Assembly (NCBI GenBank): GCA_963707655.1
Contig: OY970172.1
Span: 704,001 to 768,000 of the forward strand
Direction of reading: 5' to 3'
DNA: 64,000 nucleotides
Origin: an uncultured bacterium
GTDB lineage: Bacteria; Babelota; Babeliae; Babelales; Vermiphilaceae
The notes under the pieces were generated by a model. That model worked only from the letters and a program-made list of their open reading frames with translations. It was not told the DNA's origin and did not search any database. The stretch's first letter is position 1. Every line of letters starts with the position of its first letter. A program made the position numbers and the translations under genes. This document shows, one piece after another, positions 18,922 to 46,767 of the stretch.

Positions 18922-20106
18922 TTAAACGGCGACTCTTAACAGTTCAGATAGGGTAATAATACCCTGCGCTACCTTGCGAGCACCGTCAACCAATAAGGGT
19001 TGCAATCCGTCATTGCGTGCCTGCGCAATAATGTCATCAACAATCGGAGAATTAACAATTAAAGAGCGCAAGTTACCGGTCATAACCAGCAACTCAAAAA
19101 TACCTACACGGCCCTTATATCCCCGGCCTTTGCAGGACCCACAGCCAATGCCTTTATATAGACATTCAACCATTAATCCCATCTGTTGTAACATGAGCTG
19201 CTCTTCTTCACTTGGTTCAACCATCACACGGCATGCCAGGCAAATTTTTCTTGCCAGGCGCTGGGCAAGCACACCGGTTAGCGAAGCGTTGATTAAAAAT
19301 GGCTCAATGCCCATATCCATTAAACGCATGATGACGCTTGGCGCATCATTGGTATGTATGGTGCTTAATACCAAATGCCCTGTCAGCGATGCCTCCAGTG
19401 CAATTTGTGCCGTTTCACGGTCACGAATTTCCCCCACCATTACGATATCGGGGTCCTGGCGCAACACAGAGCGCATTCCTTTTGCAAAAGTAAAACCGGC
19501 ATCAGGGTTTACTTGACCCTGCGTCACCCCCAAAAGGTTATATTCAACCGGATCTTCCAGCGTGATAATATGCTTTTCAGCAAGATTAAGAGTATCAAGA
19601 GCCGCATAGAGCGTGGTAGTTTTTCCCGCACCGGTGGGGCCGCATACTAATAAAAATCCCTGCTGCTTACTCAAAAGCTCCTGAACGGTAAAATACATCT
19701 GCGAATCAAAGCCCAACGAATCAAGCTTTATTGTTTGGGCGGAGCGATCCAAAATACGCACCACCATGTTTTCACCGTACAAAGAGGGAAACGTGGATAC
19801 GCGCAAATCTATTTCTTTATGTTCGTACGCGATACGAAATTTACCGTCTTGAGGAATGCGCTTTTCAGCTATGTCAATGCGCGCAAGCACTTTGAGGCGT
19901 GCGCTCAACTGACTCATAAATGCTGCTTCGATAATTTGTTGATCGTATAAAATGCCATCTACACGAAAACGGATACGTCCTGAGTGCGCTGCCGGTTCAA
20001 TGTGAATGTCTGAGGCAGATTGATCAATGGCTGCATATAACAATGAATTAACCAGCCGAACAATGGGCGCTTCTTCATGAAGTGTATGCGATTGTAATCC
20101 AATCAC
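18922..20106 (-). CDS. GspE/PilB-family secretion ATPase (N2 and ATPase domains only)
   Basis: [40 protein letters not shown], tetracysteine motif. Confidence 0.93.
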   Translation of the reverse strand: MIGLQSHTLHEEAPIVRLVNSLLYAAIDQSASDIHIEPAAHSGRIRFRVDGILYDQQIIEAAFMSQLSARLKVLARIDIAEKRIPQDGKFRIAYEHKEIDLRVSTFPSLYGENMVVRILDRSAQTIKLDSLGFDSQMYFTVQELLSKQQGFLLVCGPTGAGKTTTLYAALDTLNLAEKHIITLEDPVEYNLLGVTQGQVNPDAGFTFAKGMRSVLRQDPDIVMVGEIRDRETAQIALEASLTGHLVLSTIHTNDAPSVIMRLMDMGIEPFLINASLTGVLAQRLARKICLACRVMVEPSEEEQLMLQQMGLMVECLYKGIGCGSCKGRGYKGRVGIFELLVMTGNLRSLIVNSPIVDDIIAQARNDGLQPLLVDGARKVAQGIITLSELLRVAV

Positions 20107-20639
20107 CCTTCACCTTCTTCAATCTCTTCTATTTCTTTACGCTCCTCATCAGCTGATTCCAAATCTTCAACGAGATCATAATCATCAGTCAATGACTTGT
20201 CGTAATATTCTTTAACCGCATCTTCAATATCGCGGGCAATGCCAACATAAAATTGAATATCATCAGAGGTATATTTTCGTAACGCAGGCAACAAATCTGC
20301 ATTACCCGGATCGCTCGCTGCTATCATCAATATATCTTCATCAATCTCTACCGGAATAATGTTATTGCGTAACAAAAAATCCTTAGGGAAATCGCGCACG
20401 AGCAAATGATCAAAAAAATAACCTTCTACATCAAAAAAAGGTACTTGATAATAACTGGAAAGCGCTTTAAGAGTCTCTTCTTTATCAACAAAGGCTTCTT
20501 CCAATAAAAATTCTATGAACCAATCGTGAGACGATTGAGAGAAGCCTTTTTGCAAACCTTCTGCTTCAGACGTGGAAATAACTTTATTTTTTGCCAGTAT
20601 TGCCGAAATTGCCTGGGCAAATTCTTGCTGGTTTATCAT
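20103..20639 (-). CDS. Stand-alone GspE/PilB N-terminal (N1/MshEN-like) domain protein
   Basis: FP.DFL.RN.IIPV...E..L.IA.SDP pattern of the GSPII_E N-domain; 4-bp overlap with the ATPase ORF. Confidence 0.75.
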   Translation of the reverse strand: MINQQEFAQAISAILAKNKVISTSEAEGLQKGFSQSSHDWFIEFLLEEAFVDKEETLKALSSYYQVPFFDVEGYFFDHLLVRDFPKDFLLRNNIIPVEIDEDILMIAASDPGNADLLPALRKYTSDDIQFYVGIARDIEDAVKEYYDKSLTDDYDLVEDLESADEERKEIEEIEEGEG

Positions 20640-21559: not shown

Positions 21560-21790
21560 GATTTTTGTGTTGCCCTATTGGCGAGTGCAATAAATATGCT
21601 TACACAACAGCATATTTATTTTTATGGGTGAAATGCTCGAATGACAAAATCAATAATGATTCGCAAATTTTTCTTCCCGATATGGACAAGGACAGTGAGG
21701 TTGGGGTAATGTAAGCTTTGTTCGTATATAAAGCCTGCACGGATCTTTCGTTCATTTGATGATGTCCTGTTATGAGAAGGTTATTCTGCC

Positions 21791-22990
21791 ATGAAAAAAT
21801 ATATACTAGTCTTGGGCATGCTTGAAATGTGCTCACTGACATGCATGGATAGTAAATCAGCCCAAAAGACCATTTCTCATTTTTTTGTGATTAACAAAGA
21901 AATGACCCTACCACAATTTGTCTCGTCCAGGTTCCAAGCACAGGGAATCAATGCTGGCTTGCAAAACTTTAAACAAAGACTGACTTGTGTCCCATGTAAT
22001 TACAAGACTGAAAGGGCTTGGGAATACGACGAACACTCAAGAACTAGAAAGCACCAAGCGCTAACAAAAATCGCTACGACAGACCAAGAGCGCCGGATTC
22101 AAGCAGCATGGAATAGACACCAGAAAAAATTCATTTGCGCTTGTAATACAACCTTTCTGAATGTGTTTCAATTTGAAAGGCATCACTGCATTGCACAAGA
22201 AACTTTAGCAAATTTCATGCATTCCGAACAAGACCTGATGTGTGTCCCTTGTAATTATTATGCTAAAAGCGCTTATGAATACAAGACGCACGTCGAAAAA
22301 ACTGTTCGACACCAAGCGCTAATAAAAATCGCCACGACTGATCAAGAGCGCCGAGTCCAAGCAGCGTGGGATAGAGAACGGAAAATATTCATTTGCGCTT
22401 GTAATAAAACTTTTCTGAATGTGTTTCAATTTGAAAATCACCAGTGCATTCCACAAAAAACTCTAGCAAGTTGCATGAATTCCGAACAAAAACTGGCTTG
22501 TGCCCCATGTAATTATGAGACTAAAAACGCTCGGGACTACATCCGACACGTTAACACATCTATGCTACACCAAGCGCTAACAAAAATCGCTACGACCGAC
22601 CAAGAGCGCCGGATTCAAGCAGCATGGAATAGAGAACTGAGAAGATTAATTTGCGCTTGCAATAAAGCTTTTCTGAACGTGTCTCACTTTGAAAGGCATC
22701 ACTGCAGTAAAACTCAATTTTTAGCAAATAACACTGATCAAAGCGATCTAGGTTTCAATGAAGAACTACAAGATGGACAGGATGTTATTAGAGATGTTCA
22801 GAGCGCTATGGATAAGCACTCGATTCAGGAAAATGGCCGGCTAGATAGTTTTTATCCAAGCATCACGTATGATGACCAAATAGATTCAACATCGTATCAA
22901 GATGAACAGGACCTTGCTCTTGGCACTGATGAGGATTTGCGTGAATGGTTGGGAAACATGACCGCATCTTCTCATGAAAAAGATGCCTAA
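21791..22990 (+). CDS. Secreted tandem double-zinc-finger repeat protein 1 (3 modules plus acidic tail)
   Basis: Signal-like N-terminus; 3x [C-x2-C-x12-H-x5/6-H]-QAL.KIATTDQERR.QAAW-[C-x-C-x12-H-x-C]; D/E-rich C-terminus. Confidence 0.88.
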   Translation: MKKYILVLGMLEMCSLTCMDSKSAQKTISHFFVINKEMTLPQFVSSRFQAQGINAGLQNFKQRLTCVPCNYKTERAWEYDEHSRTRKHQALTKIATTDQERRIQAAWNRHQKKFICACNTTFLNVFQFERHHCIAQETLANFMHSEQDLMCVPCNYYAKSAYEYKTHVEKTVRHQALIKIATTDQERRVQAAWDRERKIFICACNKTFLNVFQFENHQCIPQKTLASCMNSEQKLACAPCNYETKNARDYIRHVNTSMLHQALTKIATTDQERRIQAAWNRELRRLICACNKAFLNVSHFERHHCSKTQFLANNTDQSDLGFNEELQDGQDVIRDVQSAMDKHSIQENGRLDSFYPSITYDDQIDSTSYQDEQDLALGTDEDLREWLGNMTASSHEKDA

Positions 22991-25874
22991 CATAGATTGC
23001 TGCATGGACAAGAAGAGCTAGGTTGGGTAATGTAAACTCTGTTTGTACATAAACCCTGCACAGATCATTCATTTTGATAATGTCCTGTTATAAGAAGGTT
23101 ATTCTGCTATGAAAAAATATATACTAGTCTTGGGCATGCTTGAAATTTGCTTACTCACGTGCATGGATAATAAACCCGGCCAAAAGACCGTTTCTGATTT
23201 TTTTGTGATTAAAAAAGAAATGACCTTTCCGCGATTTGTCTCGTCGAGATGCCAGGTGCCAAGAGAACCTGGTGGCTCGCAAAGCTTTGAGCGAAGCCCG
23301 GCTTGCATCACGTGCAATTATAAGGCTAAAAGCGTTCTTGACTACAACCGACACGTCAAAAAAACTACTCTACATCAAGCGCTAACCAGAATCGCTACAA
23401 CAGATCGCGAGCTCCGGATACAAAAAGCGTGGAACAGAGATCAGAGAAGATTCATTTGCGCTTGCAATAAAATTTTTCCGAATGTACTTCACTTTGAAAA
23501 CCATGTCTGCATTTTACAAGAAAATCTGGCAAGCTTCGTGAATTCTGAGCAAAGCCTGACGTGCAGCGCCTGTAATTATAGCAATACGATGGCTTCGGAA
23601 TTCCAAACCCACTGTAACTCTAGACAACACCAAGCGCTAACAAAAATCGCTACGACAGACCAAGAACGCCGAATACAAGCAGCATGGGATAGAGACCAGA
23701 GAAAATTCATTTGCACTTGCGGCAAGGCTTTTTCGAATGTATTTCACTTTGAAACCCATGTCTGCATTTTACAAGAAAATCTGGCAAGCTTCGTGAGTTC
23801 TGAACAAAGCCTGACATGCACCACCTGTAATTATAGCAATACAATGGCTTCGGAATTCCAAACCCACTGCAACACTAGACAACACCAAACGTTAACAAAA
23901 ATGGCTACGACAGACCAAGAGCGCCGGGTCCAAGCGGCATGGGATAGAGGCAAGAGAAGATTCATTTGCGCTTGCAATAAAGTTTTTCCGAATGCGTTTC
24001 GTTTTGAAAATCATCGATGCAATGAATCTCAATTTTTAGCAAACAACACTGATCAAAGCGATCTAGGTTTCAATGAAGAACTACAAGATGAACAGAATGT
24101 TATCGGAGACGCTCAGGGCGCTATGGATGAGCATTTGATTCAGCAAAATGGCTGGCTAGATAGTTTTTATCCAAGCATCACACATTATGAACAAGACCTT
24201 GCTCTTGGCACTGATGCAGCAGTAGCTGCTTTAACCAGTCTTCAAAAAACCTGCGTCATCTGCAATTATACCGCTAAAGATGTCAGGCAATATAAGCAAC
24301 ACTCCCGCAACGCGACACACCAAGCATTAACAAAAATTGCTACGACAGACCAAGAGCGCCGGATTCAAGCAGCGTGGGATAGAGAACAGAGAAAATTCAT
24401 TTGCGCTTGTAATAGAGCTTTTCTGTACGTGCCTCACTTTGAAAGGCATCACTGCAGTAAAATTCGATTTTTAGCAAACAATACTGATCAAAGCGATCTT
24501 CTAGGTTTCAATGAAGAACTGCAAGCTGAACAAGATGTTATTAGAGACGCTCGGGGCGCTATCGATGATCAAATAGATTCAACATCGTATCAAGATGAAC
24601 AGGACCTTGCTCTTGGCACCGATGAGGATTTGCGTGAATGGTTGGGAAACATGACCGCATATTCTCGTGAAAAAGATGCCTAACACCGATCTTTCATTCA
24701 TTTTGATGGTGTCCTGTCATGAGAAGGTTATTCTGCTATGAAAAAATATATACTAGCCTTGAGCGTGCTTGAAGTTTGTTCATTGACATGCATGGACAGT
24801 GGATCCGGCAGAAATGCCATTTCCTCTTATTTTGTTCTTGAAAAAGAGCAAACGCTACGACAGTTTGCCGCACAGCGAGACAAAGATCGAGAAGCGGTAG
24901 CTGCTTTAACTAGTCTTCAAAAAACCTGCGTCACCTGCAATTATACCGCTAAAGATGCTCGGCAATATAGGCCACACTCGCGCAACGCGACACACCAAGC
25001 ATTAACAAAAACCGCTACGACAGACCAAGAGCGCCGGATTCAAGCAGCGTGGAATAGAGAACTGAAAAAGTTCACTTGCTCCTGTGGAGCACTTTTTTCT
25101 GACATGGGCCGCTTTAAAGCCCACCACTGCATTTTGCAAAAAAAGTTCGCAAATTTTATAACTCCTGAACAGCATCTGACGTGCGCCACGTGTAATCATA
25201 GCGACAGATTGCCTGCCAGCTTCCAAAGGCACTTAGAAAGCGCACACCATGAAGCACTGACAAAAATTGCCAGCACAGATCAAGAACACCGAGTTCAAGC
25301 AGCATGGAACAGAGAACAAAAAAAATTCATTTGTTCTTGTGGCAATGTTTTTTCGCGTATAGATTTTTTTCAAGGACATGACTGTATCCAAAATAGTTTT
25401 CTGGATTCTGAACAAGGCTTTGTATGTACCACCTGCAATTATAAAACCACAGAAACTGATTTATTCATAAAACATCGCAAAAACGCTATCCACTTGGCGT
25501 TAACAAAGACCGCTACCACTGACCAAGAACGCCGGGTGCAGGCAGCCTGGAACCGAGCACAGAGAAAATTCATTTGCATTTGTGATAAGTATTTTTATCG
25601 TCTATCCGATTTTGAAAACCATGAATGCATGTTGACAGATAATTTTTCTAACCTTGAAAAAGAGCTTAATTGCGCTCCATGCAATTATAAAGTCGCTGAT
25701 GGCTGGCATTGGGCAAGACACTTAAACAGCGCACAACATCAGGCATTAACAAAGACCGCCATAACTGATCAAGAACGCTGGATTCAAGCCGCATGGAACA
25801 AAGACTCAAAAACGTTCATTTGTTACTGCGATAAAGGTTTTCATGATATAACCCTTTTAAAACGACACCGCTGC
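21986..25874 (+). repeat. 11 coding repeat units of about 245-260 bp across three genes
   Basis: Recurring DNA core like caccaagcgctaacaaaaatcgctacgacagaccaagagcgccggattcaagcagcatggaataga. Confidence 0.92.
23109..24683 (+). CDS. Secreted tandem double-zinc-finger repeat protein 2 (4 modules, two acidic segments)
   Basis: Same N-terminus and module as protein 1; internal partial acidic tail after module 3. Confidence 0.88.
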   Translation: MKKYILVLGMLEICLLTCMDNKPGQKTVSDFFVIKKEMTFPRFVSSRCQVPREPGGSQSFERSPACITCNYKAKSVLDYNRHVKKTTLHQALTRIATTDRELRIQKAWNRDQRRFICACNKIFPNVLHFENHVCILQENLASFVNSEQSLTCSACNYSNTMASEFQTHCNSRQHQALTKIATTDQERRIQAAWDRDQRKFICTCGKAFSNVFHFETHVCILQENLASFVSSEQSLTCTTCNYSNTMASEFQTHCNTRQHQTLTKMATTDQERRVQAAWDRGKRRFICACNKVFPNAFRFENHRCNESQFLANNTDQSDLGFNEELQDEQNVIGDAQGAMDEHLIQQNGWLDSFYPSITHYEQDLALGTDAAVAALTSLQKTCVICNYTAKDVRQYKQHSRNATHQALTKIATTDQERRIQAAWDREQRKFICACNRAFLYVPHFERHHCSKIRFLANNTDQSDLLGFNEELQAEQDVIRDARGAIDDQIDSTSYQDEQDLALGTDEDLREWLGNMTAYSREKDA

Positions 25875-26060
25875 AATAAAAATCCATTTTTAGTACATGA
25901 CGCTGATAAAAACAATCAAGATCTTGACCAAGAAGTGGTAGACAAACAAGATATTTCTCTGCCCGGAGAAGATGATTTAGATGAATGGCTAGATAGAGTA
26001 GAAACATCTCGGGTAAAAAAGATGCTTGAAACTAGATTTAATGCGGTTAGTTCTGATTAA
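24738..26060 (+). CDS. Secreted tandem double-zinc-finger repeat protein 3 (4 modules plus acidic tail)
   Basis: Same module with more diverged fingers; tail DISLPGEDDLDEWLDRV. Confidence 0.88.
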   Translation: MKKYILALSVLEVCSLTCMDSGSGRNAISSYFVLEKEQTLRQFAAQRDKDREAVAALTSLQKTCVTCNYTAKDARQYRPHSRNATHQALTKTATTDQERRIQAAWNRELKKFTCSCGALFSDMGRFKAHHCILQKKFANFITPEQHLTCATCNHSDRLPASFQRHLESAHHEALTKIASTDQEHRVQAAWNREQKKFICSCGNVFSRIDFFQGHDCIQNSFLDSEQGFVCTTCNYKTTETDLFIKHRKNAIHLALTKTATTDQERRVQAAWNRAQRKFICICDKYFYRLSDFENHECMLTDNFSNLEKELNCAPCNYKVADGWHWARHLNSAQHQALTKTAITDQERWIQAAWNKDSKTFICYCDKGFHDITLLKRHRCNKNPFLVHDADKNNQDLDQEVVDKQDISLPGEDDLDEWLDRVETSRVKKMLETRFNAVSSD

Positions 26061-26208: not shown

Positions 26209-26296
26209 TGGTGCCGAGAGCCGGACTCGAACCGGCACAGGCTATAAGCCCGAAGGATTTTAAGTCCTTTGCGTCTACCAATTCCGCCATCCCGGC
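26209..26296 (-). tRNA. tRNA-Leu (anticodon TAA)
   Basis: Reverse complement GCCGGGATGGCGGAATTGGTAGACGCAAAGGACTTAAAATCCTT...GGTTCGAGTCCGGCTCTCGGCACCA; long variable arm; encoded CCA. Confidence 0.96.
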
Positions 26297-26322: not shown

Positions 26323-26396
26323 TGGAGGCGGCACCCGGATTTGAACCGGGGATCAGGGTTTTGCAGACCCTTGCCTTACCACTTGGCTATGCCGCC
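26323..26396 (-). tRNA. tRNA-Cys (anticodon GCA)
   Basis: Reverse complement GGCGGCATAGCCAAGTGGTAAGGCAAGGGTCTGCAAAACCCTGATCCCCGGTTCAAATCCGGGTGCCGCCTCCA. Confidence 0.96.
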
Positions 26397-26996: not shown

Positions 26997-27989
26997 TCAA
27001 TGAATGAATTGTAAACATCTGGCGGAGCGCACCCGTTTAAAAAAATCAATCGGGTGTTGTAGCAGATCAAAAATCCACCAATCATATTCACTATCAACTG
27101 AAAAAATCCTAAAAAGAATTCTCCCATGAATCAGCCTGCCATCCAATGGTCCAATAAAACGACAATCTCTACTTCCTTGTCTATTGTCCCCCATCACCCA
27201 ATACTGATTCTTGCCTAATTCAACATAAAATTCATCGGAACAATTCCAGCGGCTCTTGCCTTCACACCGCTCTCTGTCACAAGTCGGATTTCGTGTTAGT
27301 GGCGTTTCGGCCTCCAATAGTATCAAATCCCCTTTTTCGTCTCTAATAAGGCGATTTTCTCTTAACAAATAAAATGGTTGCTTATTGAAAGGCACTGACG
27401 GATCATACGATCGCGGATTCGTATGGTCTGCCATAAATTCTTCAACGGCATTTTTATTGGCGCGTTGCACATCTCCTTGCAACAAGGTCTTGTCTTGTTC
27501 TTGTTTAATCCGCCCGTACAAAGTCTCCGGATCTTCATCAAAGCTCATAGCCAAAGGATATTTGTTTAAATACGGCTCATCTAATTTAAGGCTATTCACA
27601 TAAACTACCGGCTTGCCATCCTCTATAACGCCCTTAACAATATCCCCCGGCACACCAATCACTCGCTTGGTCCAATTGCTTGGCCCCCATACATAATTTT
27701 GGAAAAGAGACATGCCAAAAGAAGAGGAGTAATGAAAAAGCGGATCATTGAATGAGATAATTTCGCCTCGTTGCGGCTTACGAAAAAGATAGGTTGCTTT
27801 ATCGGCAAAAAATCTTTCTCCCACGAGCATTGTTGTTTCCATTGATCCGGTAGGAACTTGATAGAGACCAAAGCCAAAGGTTCTTATTAAAAAAATAACC
27901 GTGACCCACAGCAATATCTCGCGCCAACCCCCATCTCTGCATTGTTTATATAAAGATTTGTTTGATTGCTTCTGTTTTGAATGCGCCAT
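26997..27989 (-). CDS. lepB: Signal peptidase I (paralog A)
   Basis: VPTGSMETT (Ser), TKRVIGVPGD (Lys), MGDNRQGSRDCRFIG. Confidence 0.93.
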   Translation of the reverse strand: MAHSKQKQSNKSLYKQCRDGGWREILLWVTVIFLIRTFGFGLYQVPTGSMETTMLVGERFFADKATYLFRKPQRGEIISFNDPLFHYSSSFGMSLFQNYVWGPSNWTKRVIGVPGDIVKGVIEDGKPVVYVNSLKLDEPYLNKYPLAMSFDEDPETLYGRIKQEQDKTLLQGDVQRANKNAVEEFMADHTNPRSYDPSVPFNKQPFYLLRENRLIRDEKGDLILLEAETPLTRNPTCDRERCEGKSRWNCSDEFYVELGKNQYWVMGDNRQGSRDCRFIGPLDGRLIHGRILFRIFSVDSEYDWWIFDLLQHPIDFFKRVRSARCLQFIH

Positions 27990-28627: not shown

Positions 28628-29602
28628 CTACTTAACAAATTGCAAGCATCTGCTCCAGCGGATACGCTTGAAAAAATCAATCGGATGACGCAAGAGATCA
28701 AAAATAATCCAGGTATGTGCGCTGTCAACAGAGAAAATTCTAAATAACATTTTTCCATGAATGAGTGAGCCGTCGATTGGTCCAAAGAAACGGCAGTCAT
28801 AGCTACCTTCGCGATTGTCTCCCATGCCCCAGTATTGATTTTTACCGAGCTCAACATAAAACTCATCAGTACCGTTCCAATAACTGTTACCTACGCGAAA
28901 TGCTTTGTGGTGCTTCGATTTTTCTAGAGGCGTGCCCGGCCAGCGCAATTCTATTTCACCTGCTTTATTTCTTCTTACTCCGCTTTCTTTAATATTATAA
29001 AACGGTTGGTGATCAAATGGCTTTGAAGGGTCGTACGTTTTCCAGCGAGTGCTGTAGCTTGCTTGTTCTGAAGAAAAACTTTGCAATTCTTCCATACTTA
29101 TTTGACCGCTGAGTACATATTTTAGATTTTCTTTTTCTATCGTTTTGGGATCTATGCCATAGATACCAATGAGAGGATATTGGTTAAGATACGGTTCATT
29201 AAGCTTTTCGCCATTGAGGTAAACCGCTGTTTTGCCATCTTCAATAACTCCCCTGATTGTGTCACCGGGAACAGCAATCAAACGCTTGGTTACGTTGGTT
29301 GGACCCCAGACATAATACTGAAAAAGTTTTTTGACAGGGTTTGAGGAATATTTGAAGGTCACATCATTTAACGAGATAATTTCCCCGCGTCTGGGTGCGC
29401 GAAACCAATAGGTCAGCTTATCAGCAAAAAAACTTTCGCCAATCAGCATGGTTGTTTCTGCCGATCCGGTTGGCACTTGGTACAAGCCAAAACCAAATGT
29501 TCTGACAGCAAAGATAACAACGATCCAAAGAAGCAATTCGCCCCAACTGTTTTTACCAAAATTTTTTTTGTAAAAAGGCGTATTCGATTTTTTTTCCAAC
29601 AT
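28628..29602 (-). CDS. lepB: Signal peptidase I (paralog B)
   Basis: VPTGSAETT, TKRLIAVPGD, MGDNREGSYDCRFFG. Confidence 0.93.
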   Translation of the reverse strand: MLEKKSNTPFYKKNFGKNSWGELLLWIVVIFAVRTFGFGLYQVPTGSAETTMLIGESFFADKLTYWFRAPRRGEIISLNDVTFKYSSNPVKKLFQYYVWGPTNVTKRLIAVPGDTIRGVIEDGKTAVYLNGEKLNEPYLNQYPLIGIYGIDPKTIEKENLKYVLSGQISMEELQSFSSEQASYSTRWKTYDPSKPFDHQPFYNIKESGVRRNKAGEIELRWPGTPLEKSKHHKAFRVGNSYWNGTDEFYVELGKNQYWGMGDNREGSYDCRFFGPIDGSLIHGKMLFRIFSVDSAHTWIIFDLLRHPIDFFKRIRWSRCLQFVK

Positions 29603-30570: not shown

Positions 30571-31272
30571 CTATATTAGTAGGAGATCTTCCCGAGCCAT
30601 CCAGCCCTTAAGATGCTTGTCTTTTATTTTTATCCACTGCTCACGCTGCTCTACAATAGCAACTTCTGTTGCATGCGGCAATTGTGCAATACTTTGATAG
30701 CTCGTATCAGGACCGGTAAATATCTGTGCCTGATCTTTTGTTATTATGCCAATCTGCCGATGCATTCGATAATACTTTAGACCCACTGCTCCTGCAGCAC
30801 ACAACGCGACAAAAACAAGAATCAGCAATAACAACCATCGCCTCTTCTTGTACCACGCGCACGCGAGCCCCAAAAGTATACACCAAAAAAACAAAAATAA
30901 GAGCTGTGTCGCCAAAGGGGACCAAGAGTCAACAACGGACCATGTCGTATCAAAAAAATTTGGCTCTTTACCCAAATGCTTTTCTGCCATGCGGATGTTT
31001 GCAGCAATCGCCTGATACTGATGACCGGAGGCAGTTTTTGCTGCTTTGCGCCAATACGCGTAAGCCCTTAGATAATCTCCCTGTTGATAAAAACAGTTGC
31101 CTAGGTTATACCAAACCGCATTACTTGTATTGTTCATGCGTTCATAGCTTTTTATCGCATCGGCATATTTTTCTTGCATATATAATTGATTGCCGCGCAA
31201 AAACGTTTCTTCGTCCGCACTATTGGCGTGAAGAGCAGAAAACATACAGAAAAAAACAAATGCTATAATCAT
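30571..31272 (-). CDS. batE: BatE-like TPR plus SH3b membrane protein
   Basis: TPR YNLGNCFY, two TM segments, SH3-like EQREQWIKI...KGW; last gene of the bat cluster. Confidence 0.8.
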   Translation of the reverse strand: MIIAFVFFCMFSALHANSADEETFLRGNQLYMQEKYADAIKSYERMNNTSNAVWYNLGNCFYQQGDYLRAYAYWRKAAKTASGHQYQAIAANIRMAEKHLGKEPNFFDTTWSVVDSWSPLATQLLFLFFWCILLGLACAWYKKRRWLLLLILVFVALCAAGAVGLKYYRMHRQIGIITKDQAQIFTGPDTSYQSIAQLPHATEVAIVEQREQWIKIKDKHLKGWMAREDLLLI

Positions 31273-32984
31273 AAAGAAGCCCTTTTCTTCAAAAAGGTGA
31301 TCCACTTTTCCGCCTCGTTAAAGAGCATATCGTGTGACAATGTAGCCGTGAAAAACCGCGCTTGAGTCAGCGCTATGAAAAAATGTTGCCACTCTACCAA
31401 GTCCTGCCGCGTTGCATGTTGTTCGAACCACTGCTCAATTGCAGCCCCGGTTACTGCTGATGGCTCTTGTTTGAGAATTGCTGCAAAAAGCGCTATGAAA
31501 ACTGAATAAAGCTGGGCATAATCTTTTTTGGCGCGTGCGCTGATCAGGTCGGCGCGTGCAATGCGCATCAAGCGCCATCGTCTAAAGCTGGGTACTATTT
31601 CATCAATCATTATTTTATTGTGTATAGTGGCCACCCATACCATATATATCAGCGGCATTAGCGCCAAGAGGATAAATAGCCACCACGGCATATGAGCGCT
31701 ATGTCCGCGCATGCCATACAGATTACGAACAATCCCCTTAATTTCAGGGCGATCATTCTCGTTATGCCCTTTTTCATGTGCTTCTTCTTCATGAAAGAGC
31801 TGTTGCTGATTTTCAGATTTTAAAATTGTTACCGGCACTACATTAGTATGCATCGTGATATATCTATGCTGCTCAACATCAAAATAGGTAACTGATTGCG
31901 CAGGAATTTCTATCTCGCCCGCTTTTTTTGCCTGAATTACATATTCAAAACATTGCTTATCGCCGGCAAAATATTTTTTTGATTCATATACCTTTAATGC
32001 ATCGGGAATTTTTTGCAGCGGAAATTGCTCAAGATCAACATCTCCTTCAAGCGTTATCGTGAGAGTGGCCCCTTCCCCTTCATGCATTACTGACGGAGAA
32101 AGAGATGCATATATCTTTTGGCAATGACCAATACCATCAACTCTGCCTTTGTACGGCGGAAGCGGATCAACCATAAGAGTAGCCGCATTGGAATATATAG
32201 TTTTTGCAATACGTGTGCCAAAAAGGGTTGAAAAAAAATCATACTGCTCCGGGCGCATCGTGTAATCAATCCGGTATGCAGGGACAACTATTTGACCGGT
32301 CTTGTTGGGATATATTTCCCATTGCCATTGAATATAGTCGGCCACAACCCCGTTAACCTCTTCGCGCCCAACACGCGCTTCTTGCCGGTTTTTAATTATG
32401 TATCCCTGATCTTTCTCCGGCTCGGGTTCAACAACCGTATGAAACTCAATAGACGGGTCAAGACGATAAAAACGGAGCGTAGCATATATTTTTTCGCCGA
32501 CTACTGCTTTTTCACTACTTAAAAACAAATGAGCCAAAGCTAACTCGTCATTCTTTTTTTGATGACGCTGTTGCTGATGCCGTTGCTGCTGACGAGCAAC
32601 TGCTTGATCACTCACTACAACTTCAATCGGCTCTGAGACCAAAACAGTAGTTCCTGATTTCACTCGTGCAGGGCCAAATGTGTAGGTGCCCGGTTTGTCA
32701 ATACGCGCAGCAAAACTATAGGTAACGCGTGATACCCCATTTATACTTACCATTTTAAAGCCGGTTCGGTGCAACGGGCCAATGGGGGATTTAATTTCAG
32801 GAGTAGAAAAATCTGCGGTGCCTCCTTCAATAGTCACTTCTAAATTAAAAGGTTGCCCGATTCCAGCTGTGTCTAATTGTTCGCCATTTGCCATGCGCGC
32901 ATCTAAACTGATTTGAGCATGCGTAACAGAAATAACACATATGAGAATCGACCATATAAAATTACCAACGCGGGGCATTACCAT
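31269..32984 (-). CDS. batD: BatD-family protein
   Basis: Signal peptide, SING, GTYTFGPA, repeated Ig-like beta segments, C-terminal TM; cluster position. Confidence 0.8.
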   Translation of the reverse strand: MVMPRVGNFIWSILICVISVTHAQISLDARMANGEQLDTAGIGQPFNLEVTIEGGTADFSTPEIKSPIGPLHRTGFKMVSINGVSRVTYSFAARIDKPGTYTFGPARVKSGTTVLVSEPIEVVVSDQAVARQQQRHQQQRHQKKNDELALAHLFLSSEKAVVGEKIYATLRFYRLDPSIEFHTVVEPEPEKDQGYIIKNRQEARVGREEVNGVVADYIQWQWEIYPNKTGQIVVPAYRIDYTMRPEQYDFFSTLFGTRIAKTIYSNAATLMVDPLPPYKGRVDGIGHCQKIYASLSPSVMHEGEGATLTITLEGDVDLEQFPLQKIPDALKVYESKKYFAGDKQCFEYVIQAKKAGEIEIPAQSVTYFDVEQHRYITMHTNVVPVTILKSENQQQLFHEEEAHEKGHNENDRPEIKGIVRNLYGMRGHSAHMPWWLFILLALMPLIYMVWVATIHNKIMIDEIVPSFRRWRLMRIARADLISARAKKDYAQLYSVFIALFAAILKQEPSAVTGAAIEQWFEQHATRQDLVEWQHFFIALTQARFFTATLSHDMLFNEAEKWITFLKKRASL

Positions 32985-34044
32985 TTTTGCTCCTTTTTGG
33001 TTGCTGATTATCAATCATCATTTTAATGAGTTGCTTGTTAAGCTGTGCATCTTGTTTGTCCTGCTTTTCAACAATTTCTGCCAAAGCAGCATCAAGCTTT
33101 TCCAGGCCCTGATTTTTTCTAGTTTCCTGCTTTTGCTCACCGGCTGATTTTCCCGCTTGTTCTTCTTTTTCATCTTTCTCAGCAGCTGCTTGCCCGGCGT
33201 CCGCTTTCTCTTGCTTGGCCTGCTCCTCTTTGCTCATAGCATCGGATGATTGGGAATTATTATTTTTTTGTTTGTCAGCATTGTGTTGCGATTCAGAATC
33301 TTTTTGTTCCTGCTTTTTTCCTTTATCTGATTGTTCTTTTCCTGAATCTGACTCTTCTTCTTGCTCCCCCTGATCATCTTTTTCGTGCTCCTCGGCGCTA
33401 TTCTGCGATTGCTCTTTATTCTGTCCTTTTGATTGGTCCTGAGAACCTGATTCATTATTTTCATTTTGTTGGTTGTCTTGATCAGATCCTTCTGATTGTT
33501 CATTTTTTTGATCAAAATTTTGTTTATCTTTTTTGTCTTGTTTATTCTTTTGATTATTGTTTTTATCTTTTTGCTGCTGCTGTTGTTGCTTGTTCTGCTC
33601 TTCCTCTTGCTTCTTTTTGAGCATATCTTTCACAATCTCAAGATTTTTTTTAGCTCTTTCATTATCAGCATTCAAGCGCAATACTTCTTCATAACGCGCA
33701 ATTGCATCTTCTAATTTATCCTGCTTGGCGTAAGCATTGCCTAGATTGAATAATGCCTGCTCATGCAATAAAGAGGCCTCTTCTTTACTCAGGCGAGCTG
33801 CACGCTCAAAATAACTGACTGCCTGATCAACACTGTTTTTTTTGTACGCAATTACTCCTGCATCATACAAATAGTGCGCCTCATCAGGATGATCAACAAG
33901 TGCAGGCGTCAACAACTGCTCTGCTTTTTGCCAATCTCCTTTGTTGCCCGCAGCCACTGCGCGATCATAAGAAAATAATGGCTTTGCTTGCATAGAGCCA
34001 AAAGAAAATAAAATAAAAAATGTAGATATAAAAAAATGCTTCAT
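32962..34044 (-). CDS. batC: BatC-like TPR protein with Q/K/E low-complexity tail
   Basis: ALFNLGNAY, AKKNLE, long acidic/Gln-rich tail ending in W. Confidence 0.82.
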   Translation of the reverse strand: MKHFFISTFFILFSFGSMQAKPLFSYDRAVAAGNKGDWQKAEQLLTPALVDHPDEAHYLYDAGVIAYKKNSVDQAVSYFERAARLSKEEASLLHEQALFNLGNAYAKQDKLEDAIARYEEVLRLNADNERAKKNLEIVKDMLKKKQEEEQNKQQQQQQKDKNNNQKNKQDKKDKQNFDQKNEQSEGSDQDNQQNENNESGSQDQSKGQNKEQSQNSAEEHEKDDQGEQEEESDSGKEQSDKGKKQEQKDSESQHNADKQKNNNSQSSDAMSKEEQAKQEKADAGQAAAEKDEKEEQAGKSAGEQKQETRKNQGLEKLDAALAEIVEKQDKQDAQLNKQLIKMMIDNQQPKRSKNGNAPRW

Positions 34045-35042
34045 AGTAGCCATTCAATCACCAAACAGATAAAAGCGGACAATACAAACCAAGCATATTT
34101 TTCCTCATAGCTCTCTCTTTTAGTTTCATCAATTTTTTCTTTATCGAACGCAGACAACCGATCTATCATAACCTGAATGTCAGTCGCATCAGAAGTTGCA
34201 TGTTGGTAAAAACCACCCGTTTCTTTTACCAATTTTTTTAGCAATGGCTCATTCAAACGTGATATCACAACAGCCCCTTTGCTATCTTTTTCATAGCCGG
34301 TCTGCTGACCGCGCTGATCAAATGACGGTACCGGCGCCCCATCGGTGCTGCCCACACCAAATGCAAAAATGCGCAAATCGAGCGCTAACGCTTCTTTTTT
34401 AACCCGCGCCAAATCGTCAGAAAAATCTTCTCCGTCGGTCAAGATTACCAATAATTTATTTTTACGGTCAGCCATTTTTGAGAACAGCGCAATTCCTTCT
34501 TTAATAACCTGATCAAGAGCTGTTCCTCCCGCAGAAGTAGAATGGGAATCAACCTGATCCAAAAACATAAAAAATGAATCATAATCGGTAGTCAGCGGGC
34601 ACACAAGGCACGGAGCACCTGCAAACAAAAGCAAGCCAACGCGATCAAAAGGCAAGCTATTAACCAATGAATGAATTTTTTCTTTGGCAAATGTGAGCCG
34701 ATCAGGAGTCATGTCTTTGGCAAGCATGCTGCGAGAAATATCAAGCGCAATCAAAACATCGCGCCCCTGGTATGTGATCTGTTCCTCTTTTTTATTCCAT
34801 TGCGGGCGAAGCAGGGCAAGAATAAGTAATGTTATACCAGCGAAGAACAACAATGATTTAATAATCTGCCTACTCAATGAATAATGTTGTATCAACGAGC
34901 GTTGTTTGCCGCCCCCAGTCAGTATTGAGACAACCTTTTGTCTCCGTTGCACCATATACACAAGAAGAGTTATAACGGGAACCAAGATAAAAAAAAGAAT
35001 CGCATGCTCATACGATCCCCAATGAATATCAAATCTGTTCAT
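34041..35042 (-). CDS. batB: BatB VWA-domain protein
   Basis: ALLRPQW, MIDAS DISRSM, PLTTDY, LTDGED. Confidence 0.88.
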   Translation of the reverse strand: MNRFDIHWGSYEHAILFFILVPVITLLVYMVQRRQKVVSILTGGGKQRSLIQHYSLSRQIIKSLLFFAGITLLILALLRPQWNKKEEQITYQGRDVLIALDISRSMLAKDMTPDRLTFAKEKIHSLVNSLPFDRVGLLLFAGAPCLVCPLTTDYDSFFMFLDQVDSHSTSAGGTALDQVIKEGIALFSKMADRKNKLLVILTDGEDFSDDLARVKKEALALDLRIFAFGVGSTDGAPVPSFDQRGQQTGYEKDSKGAVVISRLNEPLLKKLVKETGGFYQHATSDATDIQVMIDRLSAFDKEKIDETKRESYEEKYAWFVLSAFICLVIEWLL

Positions 35043-36028
35043 AAACTAAACCATATCAATGATGAAAGAATTAACTCAAAACAAAGCAGTATCAAAGCTG
35101 CAAAAATAAATGGCATAAAAATATCGTGACTATGCGTGTAGCGATCAACCTCATATTTTGTTTTTTCTAGTGCATCTATCGTGTCGTATACGCCACGCAT
35201 ATCTTTTGCATCGTGCGCTTTGAAATATTGTCCGCCAGTATCATGCGCAATTGTCTGCAATAATTTTTTATCATATCCCTGCGTGGGAACCATGCCTAAT
35301 CCCGGCACGAAGAAATAGGGTTTATAACCGCCAACCCCAATCGTATATATTTTGATTCCTAATTGCTTGGCAATAGAAATGGCAACCTGAGAATCAAGAT
35401 CACTCTCGCTCGGTGCACCATCGGTTAACAAAATAATAATTTTACTTTTTGCGGGAGAATTTTTTAAACGATTAGCAGCTGTGACCAATGCGGTAGAGAT
35501 GCAGGTTTCATTTGGATCGAGCAAGCCAATTTGCACGTCGGCAATAATGTCACGCACCATTTTTTTATCAAGCGTTAATGGACAACGGGAAAATGCTTCC
35601 CACGCAAAGAGCACCAATCCTATTGAGTCGTTGGTGCGTTTGTTTACAAAATGCAATGCCTCTTCTTTTGCAATGGCAATGCGCGAGCGTGGATCTTTTT
35701 CATCATCAATTCCCTGCATACTGCCGGAAATATCAAGCACCAACACAATATCAATACCATGCATGCTGGTTTTCGAATGCACATCTACCAGCTGCGGCAT
35801 GGGGATAACAAAAATTAAAAGTAAAAATACCACCACGCGCATAAGGGCGAGAATTTTTTTATGCGGATGTGTGGAGGCATGACCATGTGTTTGTAGTTGA
35901 GCACCCAATGAGTACTTATAGACGGTCCCCGTGTACCAAAATCTTTTTGCGTACAGTATCAACAGCAAAACGGGGATAAGCAATAAAAACAAGTAAGGAT
36001 AAACAAATTGGAAAGAAGTAGTGAACAC
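35039..36028 (-). CDS. batA: BatA VWA-domain protein
   Basis: GIDIVLVLDISGSM, CPLTLD, LLTDG, IYTIGVG, TGGQYF.A. Confidence 0.9.
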   Translation of the reverse strand: MFTTSFQFVYPYLFLLLIPVLLLILYAKRFWYTGTVYKYSLGAQLQTHGHASTHPHKKILALMRVVVFLLLIFVIPMPQLVDVHSKTSMHGIDIVLVLDISGSMQGIDDEKDPRSRIAIAKEEALHFVNKRTNDSIGLVLFAWEAFSRCPLTLDKKMVRDIIADVQIGLLDPNETCISTALVTAANRLKNSPAKSKIIILLTDGAPSESDLDSQVAISIAKQLGIKIYTIGVGGYKPYFFVPGLGMVPTQGYDKKLLQTIAHDTGGQYFKAHDAKDMRGVYDTIDALEKTKYEVDRYTHSHDIFMPFIFAALILLCFELILSSLIWFSL

Positions 36029-38687: not shown

Positions 38688-40941
38688 ATGAAAAAATTAT
38701 TAATTGTAGAGTCACCCGCCAAAATTAAAACGATTACCAAGTTCTTGGGAAAAGATTTCAAGATCATGTCCACTATGGGCCATGTCAAGGATCTTCCTAC
38801 CAAAGAGCTGGGGGTGACCATTAATAAATCTATAAATATTGATTATGTTCCCATTAAGAACAAAGAGAAAACTATTGCGGAAATCTGCAAAGCTGCTTCA
38901 ACTTCTGATGAAATCTATTTAGCGCCCGATCCTGACCGTGAGGGTGAAATTATTGCCTGGCACATTGAGCAGGAAATACAAAAAGTCGTTAAAAATAAGG
39001 CAAAAATTCATCGCATCACCTTTAACGAAATTACCAAACCGGCCATGCTTGAAGCAATTGATCACCCGGGAGATGTTGATCTTGATAAAGTTGCCGCTCA
39101 ACAAGCACGCCGCGTGCTTGATCGCTGGGTGGGCTATGAAGTATCCCCTATTTTATGGAAAAAATTAGCTCCGGGCCTTTCTGCCGGGCGCGTGCAATCT
39201 GTTGCTCTCCGCCTGATTGCCGATCGTGAAGAAGCTATTCGCGCCTTTAAGCCAGAAGAATATTGGACCGTTGTCGGCCAATTTTTACATGGTAAAGATT
39301 CTATTGAAGCAGAACTGACTGAAATAGGCAAAAATAAAGCTGAAATCAAAAATCAACAGCAAGCTGATGAGCTGGTTGAAAACATCCAAAAAGAAAGCTA
39401 TGTTATTGATTCGATTATTGATAAAGCAACGCACCAAAAATCCACTGCCTCCATTTATGACCAGTACTTTGCAGCAGGCAGCATTTAATCGCTTGGGCTT
39501 CAGTGTTAAAAAAACCATGCAAGTTGCCCAACAATTATATGAAGGTATGCCGCTAGAAGACGAAGCACTCCCGTTGCGTTAATTACCTATATGCGTACCG
39601 ATTCGTTCCGCCTTTCTGATACGGCGTTAAAACAAGCGCGCGATTTTATTGGCAAAAATTTTGATAAAGAATATTTGCCCAAAGAGCACAACGTTTATGA
39701 AAAAGCAAAAGGAAAAGGCAAAGCAGCTGCAGCGCAAGATGCTCACGAAGCGGTGCGTCCGATTAATGTGAACATCACTCCTGAGAAAGCACATAAATAT
39801 CTACCCAAAGATGTTGCAAAGCTTTATGAACTTATTTGGAAGCGCTTTGTTGCCTGCCAAATGAAGCCAGCATTATATGCACAGCGCCAAGTGGTTATTA
39901 AAGGGGGAGAATTTACCTTTAAAGTCACCGGTTCAACCCTCATATTTGATGGATTCTTGAAAGTGTACGCCGCGGACGAAGATGAAAAAGAAGACAAAGA
40001 ATTATTCCTCAAGGGCTTAAAGCTAAAGAAAAAGTTAATCTTAAAAAAGTGATGCCAAAGCAGCATTTTACTCAACCGCCACCACGATATACTGAAGCTT
40101 CATTGGTCAAAGAGATGGAAAAAGAGGGCATTGGCCGACCAAGTACCTATGCCACTATCATGAACACTATTCAGGCGCGCCACTATACCGCTCTTGATAC
40201 AAAAAAAGATTTACTCCGACTGAACTGGGAATGACGGTAACCAAAATTTTGGTTGAAAATTTACCAAAGATTATGGATCTCAAGTTCACGGCACATATGG
40301 AAGAAGATCTTGATAAAATTGCTCAAGGTGATCTTGATCGAGATACGTTATTGCGCGGGTTTTATGAAGCGTTCCAGCAAGATGTAAAAGAATTCAAAGG
40401 CAAAGATGGTAAAAAAGTTGCCGAACCGACCGACATTACCTGTCCAGAATGTGAAAAACCCAATCTGGTGATTCGATTTGGAAAAGCAGGAGAATTTTTG
40501 GGTTGCCCAGATTATCCTGATTGCGCGTTTACTACCAATTTTAAACGTGATGAAAAAGGGGATATTGAAATTGTAAAAACTGAGGGCCCTAAACTGCTCG
40601 ATGAAAAATGTCCAAAATGCGGCAAACATCTGCGCCAGGTTATTGGTAAGTTTGGTCCCTTCGTTGCCTGTTCAGGGTATCCTGACTGCAAATATATTAA
40701 GCAAAAAAAGGCGGAAGTTCCCTGCTTATCATGTGGCGGCTCATTGGTTGAACGTCGTTGGCGCGGCGGTACTTTCTGGGGATGTTCAAACTATCCAAAA
40801 TGTAAGTTCGCCGTATTTGGTGATATTGAAGAAACCCCATGTCCGCAGTGTTCGCGCGCTTACATGGCAAAGAAAGTTGATAAACAAGGAAACGCAACCC
40901 TGCTTTGCACCGATAAAAAATGTGGGTACAAAAGTAGTTAA
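38688..40941 (+). CDS. topA: DNA topoisomerase I with C-terminal Zn ribbons (at least 4 frameshifts in this sequence)
   Basis: [51 protein letters not shown] and C4 Zn-ribbon repeats spread over consecutive frames. Confidence 0.93.
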
Positions 40942-42230: not shown

Positions 42231-42363
42231 AGAGAAACTCCTTAAAAAAGAGGATACCGCTACAACGACACACCATGTATACCATTAACAGTCTTCATTT
42301 TTCTACAAAATGCAATTTTCAGGCAAAAAGCTTATTAAGCTCATGCTATCGAGCATGCGTTTT

Positions 42364-42416
42364 GAAGTTTTATAGATTCAAGAATTGGCTGTATGCATGC
42401 TGAGAAATTGTTGAAG
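42364..42416. repeat. 53-bp direct repeat, copy 1 (copy 2 at 48491-48543)
   Basis: gaagttttatagattcaagaattggctgtatgcatgc[t/c]gagaaattg[t/a]tgaag; 2 mismatches. Confidence 0.92.
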
Positions 42417-42486
42417 AAAAAACATTTTTAGTTTTCTTCATAATTTGAATTTTTTTAGATTGTACAGCGCATGATATTAAAAATAA

Positions 42487-42509
42487 ACGGGCTCGATGTT
42501 CGAGCCCGT
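42487..42509 (-). terminator. Probable terminator
   Basis: acgggctcga-tgt-tcgagcccgt stem, followed by TTATTTTT on - strand. Confidence 0.7.
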
Positions 42510-42531
42510 CCAACAAAAATGTATTCAAAAA

Positions 42532-46693: not shown

Positions 46694-46767
46694 GAGAAAC
46701 ACCTTTAATTATTTTTTAGCGTCAGGCAACTATCTTTTTAGCATCATAGTGTGTAAGAAAAAATTAT

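Follow-up and report, generated by a model that had tools for sequence, protein, structure and literature searches.

Why would a bacterium, probably a parasite of protists, encode tandem arrays of eukaryote-type zinc fingers behind an export-type leader? The question is raised by three adjacent genes, here called A, B and C, at 21791..26060 of a 64,000-nucleotide (nt) stretch of DNA (the window; positions 704,001 to 768,000 of contig OY970172.1, assembly GCA_963707655.1) from an uncultured member of the Dependentiae. Multi-finger Cys2-His2 (C2H2) proteins are a hallmark of eukaryotes, and what is known from bacteria is mainly the single Ros/MucR finger. The three proteins together carry 11 copies of a module of about 85 amino acids (aa), in which two zinc fingers are joined by a nearly invariant linker. 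They share one layout (3/3): a hydrophobic leader comes first, then a short basic stretch and a basic array, and last a very acidic tail. From these sequence features, the reading tentatively favoured here, at a little under even probability, is that they may be nucleic-acid binders exported through Sec and directed at the host, with modules that recombination shuffles.

Three tandem genes built from one double-finger module

The list of open reading frames (ORFs) places the three plus-strand genes exactly where a preliminary description of this DNA had put them, and their N-termini follow a common pattern, MKKYIL[VA]L..LE.C.LTCMD (3/3). That description had counted 3 + 4 + 4 modules; a pattern scan agrees, pairing 11 finger A sites with 11 finger B sites. 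Finger A is C-x2-C-x12-H in 11/11 modules, with five residues between the two histidines in eight of them and six in three. Finger B is C-x-C-x12-H-x-C in 11/11, and all 11 also fit the fuller pattern F-I-C-x-C-x3-F-x5-F/L-x2-H-x-C. A module measures 68-69 aa from first to last cysteine and recurs with a period of 81-86 aa; within the unit of ~85 aa, a helical linker of 27 aa runs from finger A to finger B and a spacer of ~17 aa follows.

The 11-module alignment contains 18 invariant columns (mean column identity 63%), among them every one of the eight putative zinc ligands and, in the linker, L, A, T, D, E, Q, A and W. All putative zinc ligands are retained across the 11 modules (88/88), and against the module profile every module scores E 1e-38 to 1e-42, far beyond chance. 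Entropy is near 0 at alignment columns 31-52, in the linker, whose near-invariant surface, TTDQERRIQAAW, is displayed 3-4 times per protein. The features of the locus are as follows.

21737..21790, +, conserved 5′ leader of gene A, with a GAGAAGG site resembling a ribosome-binding site ~10 nt before the ATG (upstream-region alignment)
21791..22990, +, gene A, 399 aa: hydrophobic leader (aa 1-20), basic N region, three modules, acidic tail (ORF, Pfam, charge map)
21971..22225, +, module A1: finger A, linker, finger B, spacer (pattern scan, alignment; likewise for all modules below except B4)
22226..22480, +, module A2
22484..22738, +, module A3
22727..22987, +, acidic C-terminal tail of A, net charge -17, pI 4.05, final motif EDLREWL (charge map)
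23055..23108, +, conserved 5′ leader of gene B (upstream-region alignment)
23109..24683, +, gene B, 524 aa: leader, three modules, internal remnant of an acidic tail, mosaic module 4, acidic tail (ORF, Pfam)
23289..23543, +, module B1
23547..23801, +, module B2
23802..24056, +, module B3
24042..24236, +, internal acidic segment of B, charge -13 (sequence comparison, charge map)
24237..24491, +, module B4, mosaic: finger A and linker C1-like, finger B and tail A3-like (nucleotide identity)
24477..24680, +, acidic tail of B, net charge -14, ending EDLREWL (charge map)
24684..24737, +, conserved 5′ leader of gene C (upstream-region alignment)
24738..26060, +, gene C, 440 aa: leader, four modules, acidic tail (ORF, Pfam)
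24912..25166, +, module C1
25167..25421, +, module C2
25410..25664, +, module C3
25656..25910, +, module C4
25896..26057, +, acidic tail of C, net charge -9, motif DDLDEWL (charge map)

In the upstream alignment, the ~54 nt that precede each ATG are nearly identical across genes A, B and C. Conservation of this leader and of the GAGAAGG site in three genes indicates that the MKKYIL start is the real one. Short public contigs from four soil, wetland and peat sequencing runs (three studies) match parts of the locus with 0-2 differences and run across junctions between modules (22082-22517) and across the one between genes B and C (24525-24897). The tandem layout thus does not stem from faulty assembly; this support is partly independent, as the contigs are pieces of the locus only and one run is possibly the source sample. 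A sequencing-run search with the locus returned eight DNA runs with small shares (0.05-0.14) and no matching RNA run among the runs listed. Contamination by eukaryotic or viral DNA was considered and rejected: one 1.09-Mb contig holds the genes, with HU on one side and the tRNA-Leu/tRNA-Cys and signal peptidase genes on the other, and their GC content is 0.42 against 0.413 for the genome.

Finger identity and predicted fold

The likeness of finger A to fingers of the U1/matrin/JAZ type, suspected earlier from histidine spacing, is supported and extends to ZNF622: Pfam cut-offs are passed, the fold is predicted to be beta-beta-alpha, and the best superpositions are on SF3A2, TUT1 and U1C. For proteins B and C the top Pfam family is PF12756 zf-C2H2_2 (36.6 and 31.5 bits against a cut-off of 26.9), in a match over finger A and the first part of the linker (profile positions 48-91 of 100). 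Protein A passes PF24540 zf-C2H2_REST (33.3 bits; cut-off 27). PF12171 zf-C2H2_jaz is passed by B (23.9; cut-off 22.6), with A at 19.5 and C at 10.6 falling below. Neither TAL_effector nor ROS_MUCR is among the Pfam families listed at E up to 10 for any of the proteins.

The linker, by contrast with finger A, belongs to no described family, as had been surmised: Pfam, NCBIfam and PDB sequences cover neither the linker nor the linker together with finger B. An NCBIfam search of the window proteins gave nothing close to any cut-off, and a PDB sequence search with protein C gave a single match at E 1, taken as chance. The Pfam family DUF2251 aligned with the linker and finger B at 23.9, 22.2 and 16.3 bits, all under its cut-off of 25; it was dropped as uninformative, a search with the family being empty in this genome and in controls.

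An AlphaFold model of one module, built with 11 aligned sequences (predicted local distance difference test, pLDDT, 84; predicted template modelling score, pTM, 0.64), gives the order beta-beta-alpha for finger A, two helices for the linker and beta-beta-alpha for finger B. The predicted elements of finger A (E4-6, E11-13 and H16-23) reach pLDDT ~90. The module is thus probably one compact double-finger unit in which the invariant linker joins both fingers. The two-module model scores lower (pLDDT 66.7, pTM 0.40, spacer below 50), so that successive modules, linked through short and probably flexible spacers, would resemble beads on a string, not a solenoid.

Finger A and the following helix superpose on the SF3A2 matrin finger with a root-mean-square deviation (rmsd) of 1.5-2.0 Å over 31-36 residues (Z 2.6-3.0). 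The corresponding Z is 3.1 for TUT1, 2.6 for U1C and 3.0 for JAZ (2mkn_A), with rmsd values of 1.5-3.1 Å overall; Z is low because the domain is small. Finger B aligns with the Aart, Miz-1 and consensus fingers at E 0.005-0.1, with one residue fewer between the cysteines. It fails the classical Krüppel pattern on two counts, a single residue between its cysteines and a last position held by Cys where the pattern has His, and on sequence looks like a derived Krüppel-like finger. Neither array hallmark of well-known finger or repeat proteins is present: the period of 81-86 aa departs from the 28-aa period and TGEKP-like linker of Krüppel-type arrays, and the 85-aa double zinc finger from the 33-35-aa helical repeat of TAL proteins.

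A constrained linker, a variable helix and mosaic modules

All ten variable heptads quoted in the preliminary description are found, MASEFQT being common to modules B2 and B3, and so is the aromatic residue at +4, a Y, F or W three residues before the first His in 11/11 modules. The columns from CxxC to the second His vary strongly, except +4 and, less so, +1. As had been proposed, the variable residues (finger A positions -1, +2, +3, +5 and +6) lie on the exposed face of the predicted helix and not at buried or non-helical positions.

The ratio of nonsynonymous to synonymous divergence (dN/dS) differs sharply along the module. It is 0.00-0.05 at zinc-ligand and scaffold columns and 0.17 in the linker, at a synonymous divergence (dS) of ~0.8-1.2; such low ratios at such dS indicate that the modules are old and that conservation is selective, not a result of recent copying. 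Recent gene conversion was tried as the cause of linker conservation and rejected, the proportion of synonymous differences (pS) in the linker being 0.49. Over all 55 module pairs the helix columns give dN/dS 0.90, as relaxed sites would, for columns that were selected for being variable. Within the helix region defined by structure, dN/dS exceeds 1 (1.07-2.82) in 7/10 close pairs, each with only ~9 synonymous sites. Diversifying selection on the finger A helix is possible. Of the earlier claim of a diversifying helix, the strong variation stands; positive selection is not demonstrated, given a dN/dS of ~0.9 and ~9 synonymous sites.

Modules also exchange parts. B2 and B3 have a common finger A helix and different B fingers; A3 and B4 have a common finger B (dS 0) and different A fingers. 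B4 tracks gene C up to ~24390 (87-96% nt identity) and gene A from ~24327 (84-98%), which puts the crossover in the conserved linker. The internal acidic segment of B resembles the tail of A through ...DLALGTD and continues as the sequence that precedes C module 1, and from ~24210 B matches C 24850-25200 at 87-96% nt identity. Judged by this sequence comparison, the segment is the scar of a recombination that joined two genes. The mosaics (B2/B3, A3/B4 and B4) indicate that recombination in the conserved linker builds new modules and genes.

A fixed linker beside a freely varying helix also admits other functions. A serious alternative, if a rather unlikely one, is that the proteins are exported adaptors for a host protein, with the invariant linker clamping one conserved target (ribosomal, spliceosomal or trafficking), the fingers serving as scaffold and the helix residues unconstrained. 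The linker is indeed the most conserved part (entropy near 0; dN/dS 0.17 at dS 0.8), and the variable positions show the dN/dS of ~0.9 expected of relaxed sites. The best Pfam match, PF12756, is the ZNF622/Rei1 family that binds pre-60S particles, ZNF622 (E 0.34 in the PDB profile search) and pre-60S chains are among the weak matches, and the ankyrin repeat effectors of the phylum bind protein. An adaptor role fits less well with arrays that are basic (pI ~9) and paired with an acidic tail. In addition, the linker may be conserved as the core that holds two fingers in a module predicted to be compact, and a sister family in this genome varies at -2, -1, +2, +3 and +6, which we take to be close to the classical base-contact positions.

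The preliminary description likened the arrays to transcription activator-like effectors (TALEs). In its full form this would mean a programmable reader, each module reading a base or short word, the module order spelling a host address and the acidic tail activating transcription. Such a reader is quite improbable here, even though the variable residues lie on an exposed helix face, the modules are shuffled by recombination, the layout joins a basic array to an acidic tail, and helix dN/dS is above 1 in seven of the ten close pairs. The two-module model has no fixed geometry (pTM 0.40, spacer pLDDT <50), and successive finger A units stand 85 aa apart, which makes continuous groove tracking in the Krüppel or TALE style unlikely. 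The selection values carry their own limits, ~9 synonymous sites per pair and an all-pair 0.90 on columns picked as variable, and for deriving a code there are 11 modules only and no orthologues. With a disordered spacer, no packed solenoid, no marker of a type III secretion system (T3SS) and no clear nuclear localization signal (NLS), the analogy is only loosely apt and a code of the TALE kind is not supported.

Leaders, charge and a possible export route

Each leader consists of MKK and a hydrophobic core whose best 10-residue hydropathy is 2.25-2.51. The arrays carry a net charge of +11 to +15 (pI 9.0-9.2) and the tails one of -9 to -17 (pI ~4), ending in EDLREWL (A, B) or DDLDEWL (C). Leaders of this type also begin the other finger proteins of this genome (9/9), which holds at least 12 leader-bearing finger genes, all 12 with an export-type leader. 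In other genomes of the phylum, 9/11 complete finger-bearing ORFs reach a leader hydropathy of 2.0 and the other two are leader-like by eye; these come from 12 loci, of which two gave none, and two ORFs cut by the locus end were left out. The background for this threshold is 46% of 907 ORFs in this genome. A lipoprotein leader was considered and set aside: the residues before either Cys (E-M-C, L-T-C) misfit the lipobox, and the matching Cys is missing in 2/6 leaders of the sister family.

The producing bacterium had been described as energy-parasitic with a reduced genome, and three TLC ATP/ADP translocases and a genome of 1.09 Mb agree. The window sits in one contig of 1,091,075 bp, with a GC content of 41.3% and a marker completeness of 88.6%. 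The closest named relatives of its SufB, at 71-78% identity, come from metagenome-assembled genomes (MAGs) of Candidatus Babeliales/Dependentiae; some equally close records are auto-labelled 'uncultured Pseudomonadota'. For comparison a phylum set of 261 genomes (0.7-2.4 Mb, one order) was used. Passages of PMC6561590 on Chromulinavorax, a cultured member of the phylum, report signal peptides in 44% of coding sequences and 78% of ankyrin proteins, and propose Sec for export.

Export, which the preliminary description had also claimed, is plausible: a metagenomic homologue, P0094, has a classical signal peptide right before its first module. No T3SS or type IV marker was found: FHIPEP (SctV/FlhA; T3SS and flagellar) and VirB4 (type IV secretion system) had no match in this genome, which is 88.6% complete. 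Two secretins are present, as are E-type ATPases of the type II secretion system (T2SS). Both T2SS-E/PilB-type ATPase genes of the window, at 18922-20639 (-) and 61060-62373 (-), look split. The split form is an ORF for the MshEN N-domain and an ORF for the ATPase, the second gene breaking within the ATPase; the splits bear on whether the secretion or pilus ATPases are intact.

The leader could also serve the cell itself. It is distinctly unlikely that the proteins act in or on the bacterium, as leader-anchored membrane proteins, cytoplasmic regulators or periplasmic or surface zinc binders with no host target. A leader atypical for cleavage (Glu in the core, no AxA) would suit this role, as would the failure of the FHIPEP and VirB4 searches to find a dedicated effector injection system, and bacterial zinc-finger regulators do exist (Ros/MucR). 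A housekeeping regulator would not be expected to be absent from 260 other phylum genomes, the same genus included. Moreover, the homologue P0094 carries a standard, cleavable-looking signal peptide, the fingers are of eukaryote or giant-virus type, and no Ros/MucR family is in the Pfam list at E up to 10.

A module with almost no relatives

The homologue search yielded two proteins at E ≤0.001 among 5564 candidates, both from this genome. The module profile found no match in 60 relatives, same genus included, and one weak match in the 260 other phylum genomes, to a finger protein of another kind (G220, E 7.6e-6). Run against 1.84 billion representative proteins, it gave 92 matches at E ≤0.001, seven at 1e-10 and one at 1e-30, the last being the window's own protein. 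Just one clear relative lies outside this genome, the metagenomic P0004/P0094 (E 2e-24). P0094 combines a signal peptide of textbook appearance with three modules laid out in the same way, a single ordinary C2H2 finger and an acidic tail whose final ELLDEFL resembles the EDLREWL of protein A. Its linker keeps L-T ... A-W-N/D ... K-x-F-x-C, and its second finger is C-x2-C ... H-x-C. Single-module forms are P0020 and a paralogue in this genome at C1:301460-301963.

Pattern scans added no relative: there were 17 matches to the module pattern in a collection of genome contigs, and 32 (with P0094) and 140 (with the module) in metagenome contigs. The remaining whole-module matches are small AT-rich proteins in which a CxC...H-x3-C finger comes after a Cx2Cx12Hx5H finger; some of these proteins match DUF1390. 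The best BFVD fold matches are Klosneuvirus-like and Marseille-like giant-virus C2H2 proteins (E 0.025). Most of the nearest ESM-Atlas clusters, which serve as leads only, are Nucleocytoviricota (score 0.94). The double-finger module is a variation on the C2H2 theme with almost no relatives, previously undescribed.

A strain-specific family could also consist of decaying or selfish, recently amplified ORFs without function, and other genes of the window are split (topA, two T2SS-E), a sign of broken genes in the genome or its assembly. This explanation is highly improbable: all three ORFs are intact over 1.2-1.6 kb, 88/88 putative zinc ligands are kept, and scaffold dN/dS is 0.00-0.05 despite a dS near or above 1.

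Leader-bearing finger arrays in the genome and phylum

Leader-bearing C2H2 arrays form a genome-wide and phylum-wide set, to which the window family contributes only a small share. A scan of this genome for Cx2Cx12Hx3-6H listed 18 ORFs, of which the 15 retained hold 51 fingers; those dropped were 179006-179188 and two antisense ORFs inside finger genes. The loci outside the window are the following.

G000:C1:358629-364926 (L016:10648-16930), second cluster, six tandem genes (265-385 aa) with 34 fingers, 4-7 per gene
C1:301460-301963 (L005:1363-1845), leader-bearing single-module relative of the window family, profile E 7e-10
C1:350152-351039 (L016:2159-3043), two-finger leader-bearing protein
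C1:369003-369635 (L017:3000-3614), -, three-finger leader-bearing protein with the linker GLPQVAWYLR
L024 (G073:C1:237623-240691) and L027 (G003:C1:357287-360352), Krüppel-type arrays with HTGEKPY linkers: 262 aa, seven fingers; 299 aa, five fingers
L018 (G110), L026 (G200) and L020 (G221), further phylum C2H2 loci behind hydrophobic leaders

The six-gene cluster encodes the sister family mentioned above. Its proteins have the leader MKK..LACPSCWAM, a conserved N region and Cx2Cx12Hx5H fingers with a 40-aa period and the joiner LEKTGQSLPDWQAY; a KKGMKKRKIAR patch before the array resembles a classical NLS. They pass the cut-offs of zf-met, zf-C2H2_jaz (up to 43.7 bits) and zf-C2H2_2, and their fingers are most variable at positions -2, -1, +2, +3 and +6. 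A finger of this family aligns with window finger A over 28 columns (hhalign probability 92%, E 5e-7).

Across the phylum, PF12171 fingers occur in 28/261 genomes (18 over the cut-off) and in 0/14 control genomes. True Krüppel-type arrays with HTGEKPY linkers stand behind a hydrophobic leader in G073 and G003; in G073 the JAZ model matches 14 times, mostly at C1:233-240 kb. Tandem pairs of finger genes also occur among the phylum loci, as does a 13-finger protein of 831 aa. No description of exported C2H2 arrays in bacteria or Dependentiae was found in the literature, subscription journals and supplements being outside the scope, and the habit of placing a leader on zinc-finger arrays across the phylum is apparently undescribed.

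Proposed mechanism and its difficulties

Under the reading favoured here, host-directed binding of nucleic acid, the bacterium would be a Dependentiae energy parasite, most likely inside a protist. The N-terminal leader would direct the unfolded protein through Sec, and exit from the cell may follow secretin/T2SS-like machinery or vesicles, as proposed for the ankyrin effectors of the phylum. In the host cytosol the protein would take up zinc, and its basic double-finger units would hold host nucleic acid; given the finger type, an RNA duplex is at least as likely a ligand as DNA. The acidic tail may recruit a host factor or mask the array until the target is met. Duplication, with recombination in the conserved linker, would swap finger A and finger B halves and so yield new proteins.

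Several observations weigh against this scheme. The strongest constraint lies on the linker and not on the helix that would read bases, a pattern that one shared target would explain no less well than a variety of nucleic-acid targets. C2H2 fingers of the finger A type also bind proteins and ribosomes, and the net charge of single modules spans -3 to +10. Structural matches of the module are weak, with a best Z of 3.4 over 48,161 chains in VIA-align and 0 Foldseek matches against PDB at E ≤0.001. As modelled, the whole module appears to be covered by no known fold; a weak or missing match does not prove novelty. The leader core holds a Glu, and its likely end, L-T-C before M-D, offers no small-x-small site, so that the leader could instead be an uncleaved membrane anchor. 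The proteins, with 18-25 cysteines each, would need to traverse an oxidising periplasm. Finally, a simple motif scan for the classical NLS (K-K/R-x-K/R) found none in A or B; the NLS-like sequences are RGKRR at residue 280 of B and one weak K-R-H-R inside a finger B of C.

A bolder version of the reading is an improbable one, if attractive: that Dependentiae, this lineage above all, export shuffled arrays which read specific host nucleic-acid sequences and are coupled to an acidic effector tail, a counterpart of TALE and KRAB-zinc-finger proteins with fingers of eukaryotic or giant-virus derivation and Sec delivery. If true, the window family, the six-gene family with its 40-aa period and the TGEKPY arrays would be independent solutions for reprogramming protist hosts.

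Genes around the locus

Beyond the 3′ end of the finger genes lie tRNA-Leu (26209-26296) and tRNA-Cys (26323-26396) and, past both tRNAs, two paralogous signal peptidase I (S26) genes at 26997-27989 (-) and 28628-29602 (-), with a NUDIX gene between them. Other window genes look effector-like: a PLA2_B protein of the cytosolic phospholipase A2/lysophospholipase type (4613-6184, -), a 570-aa ankyrin-repeat protein (49560-51272, -) and a PLD-like protein (56029-56808, -). Topoisomerase I (38688-40938, +) is spread over three ORFs, which hold Toprim and the start of Topoisom_bac, the middle of Topoisom_bac, and the zinc ribbons; the pattern points to frameshifts, a pseudogene or errors of assembly. 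A Bat-like operon of the aerotolerance type occupies 30571-36028 (-), with BatD, a TPR protein, two VWA proteins and a TPR/SH3 protein. Seven ORFs of 110-273 aa at 41505-47599 have no Pfam match at E ≤1e-6, and within this run, at 44001-46000, the window's GC content peaks at 0.51 against ~0.41 elsewhere.

Comparison with known systems

The fingers of JAZ/ZNF346 and the ZFa-type fingers that bind double-stranded RNA (PF12171; PDB 2mkn) share with the window proteins the Cx2Cx12Hx5H pattern and long, non-TGEKP linkers between several fingers. However, proteins A and C fall below the PF12171 cut-off, every second window finger is CxC...HxC, and the conserved two-helix linker occurs in no JAZ-type protein retrieved; RNA binding by the window proteins is putative. 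The matrin fingers of U1C, SF3A2 and TUT1 give the best local superpositions of window finger A, at Z values of only 2.6-3.1, and sit on RNA duplexes in the small nuclear ribonucleoprotein structures named in PDB titles. In contrast to the window fingers, they are single, unrepeated and unexported, and belong to large eukaryotic complexes without a partner finger. ZNF622/Rei1 (PF12756), of which ZNF622 is a eukaryotic cytoplasmic factor of 60S biogenesis, is matched only over the second-finger half of the model and nothing beyond.

Small C2H2 proteins of giant viruses (Klosneuvirinae, Marseilleviridae) are the only outside matches over the whole module length. The giant virus-like P0031, P0042, P0086 and P0093 weakly match profile positions 2-73 (E 1e-5 to 1e-3); a viral origin of these metagenomic matches is inferred from their composition and DUF1390 matches. 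Like the window modules, they have a Cx2Cx12Hx5H finger, a spacer and a CxC finger in that order; unlike them, they lack the TTD...AW linker, end the second finger in H-x3-C rather than H-x-C, contain a single module and have no leader. The likeness adds a case for a gene pool common to amoeba-associated bacteria and viruses.

With the TAL effectors of Xanthomonas the resemblance is one of logic: tandem modules in a bacterial protein (export of the window proteins being predicted), a fixed scaffold with few variable residues, recombination and an acidic C-terminus. There is no relation in sequence or fold, the TAL unit being a helical repeat of 33-35 aa and the window unit an 85-aa zinc module. 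The window proteins also lack a predicted packed superhelix, a clear NLS and a derivable code, and carry a Sec-type leader rather than a T3SS signal. Where TAL effectors have an acidic activation domain, the window tails are acidic (net -9 to -17, pI ~4) with a conserved acidic-hydrophobic motif; activation by them is putative. The double-finger module, small, predicted to be compact and naturally shuffled at a fixed linker, may interest protein engineers.

A precedent from fungi is offered by MoHTR1/2/3 of Magnaporthe oryzae, described in passages of PMC7672089 and PMC10189765 as secreted C2H2 nuclear effectors that act inside the host. As described there, they combine a signal peptide (in the window proteins, a leader) with C2H2 fingers in a pathogen protein; they differ in being fungal and small, with few fingers and with an NLS and DNA binding shown experimentally. 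Their action in the host indicates, as far as those passages go, that secretory passage is compatible with C2H2 effector function.

From the same phylum come the ankyrin proteins of Dependentiae such as Chromulinavorax and Babela, which likewise join a Sec leader to eukaryote-like repeats in expanded, lineage-specific families, and which differ in having the protein-binding ankyrin fold. In passages of PMC6561590 they are presumed to be host-directed; zinc fingers as effectors are not mentioned in those passages, and 'zinc' occurs once in that paper, for a transporter. If the window proteins are exported, Dependentiae would gain a class of host-directed nucleic-acid or protein binders beside the ankyrin repeats, and with it a way to study how parasites that are widespread but can hardly be cultured gain control of protists.

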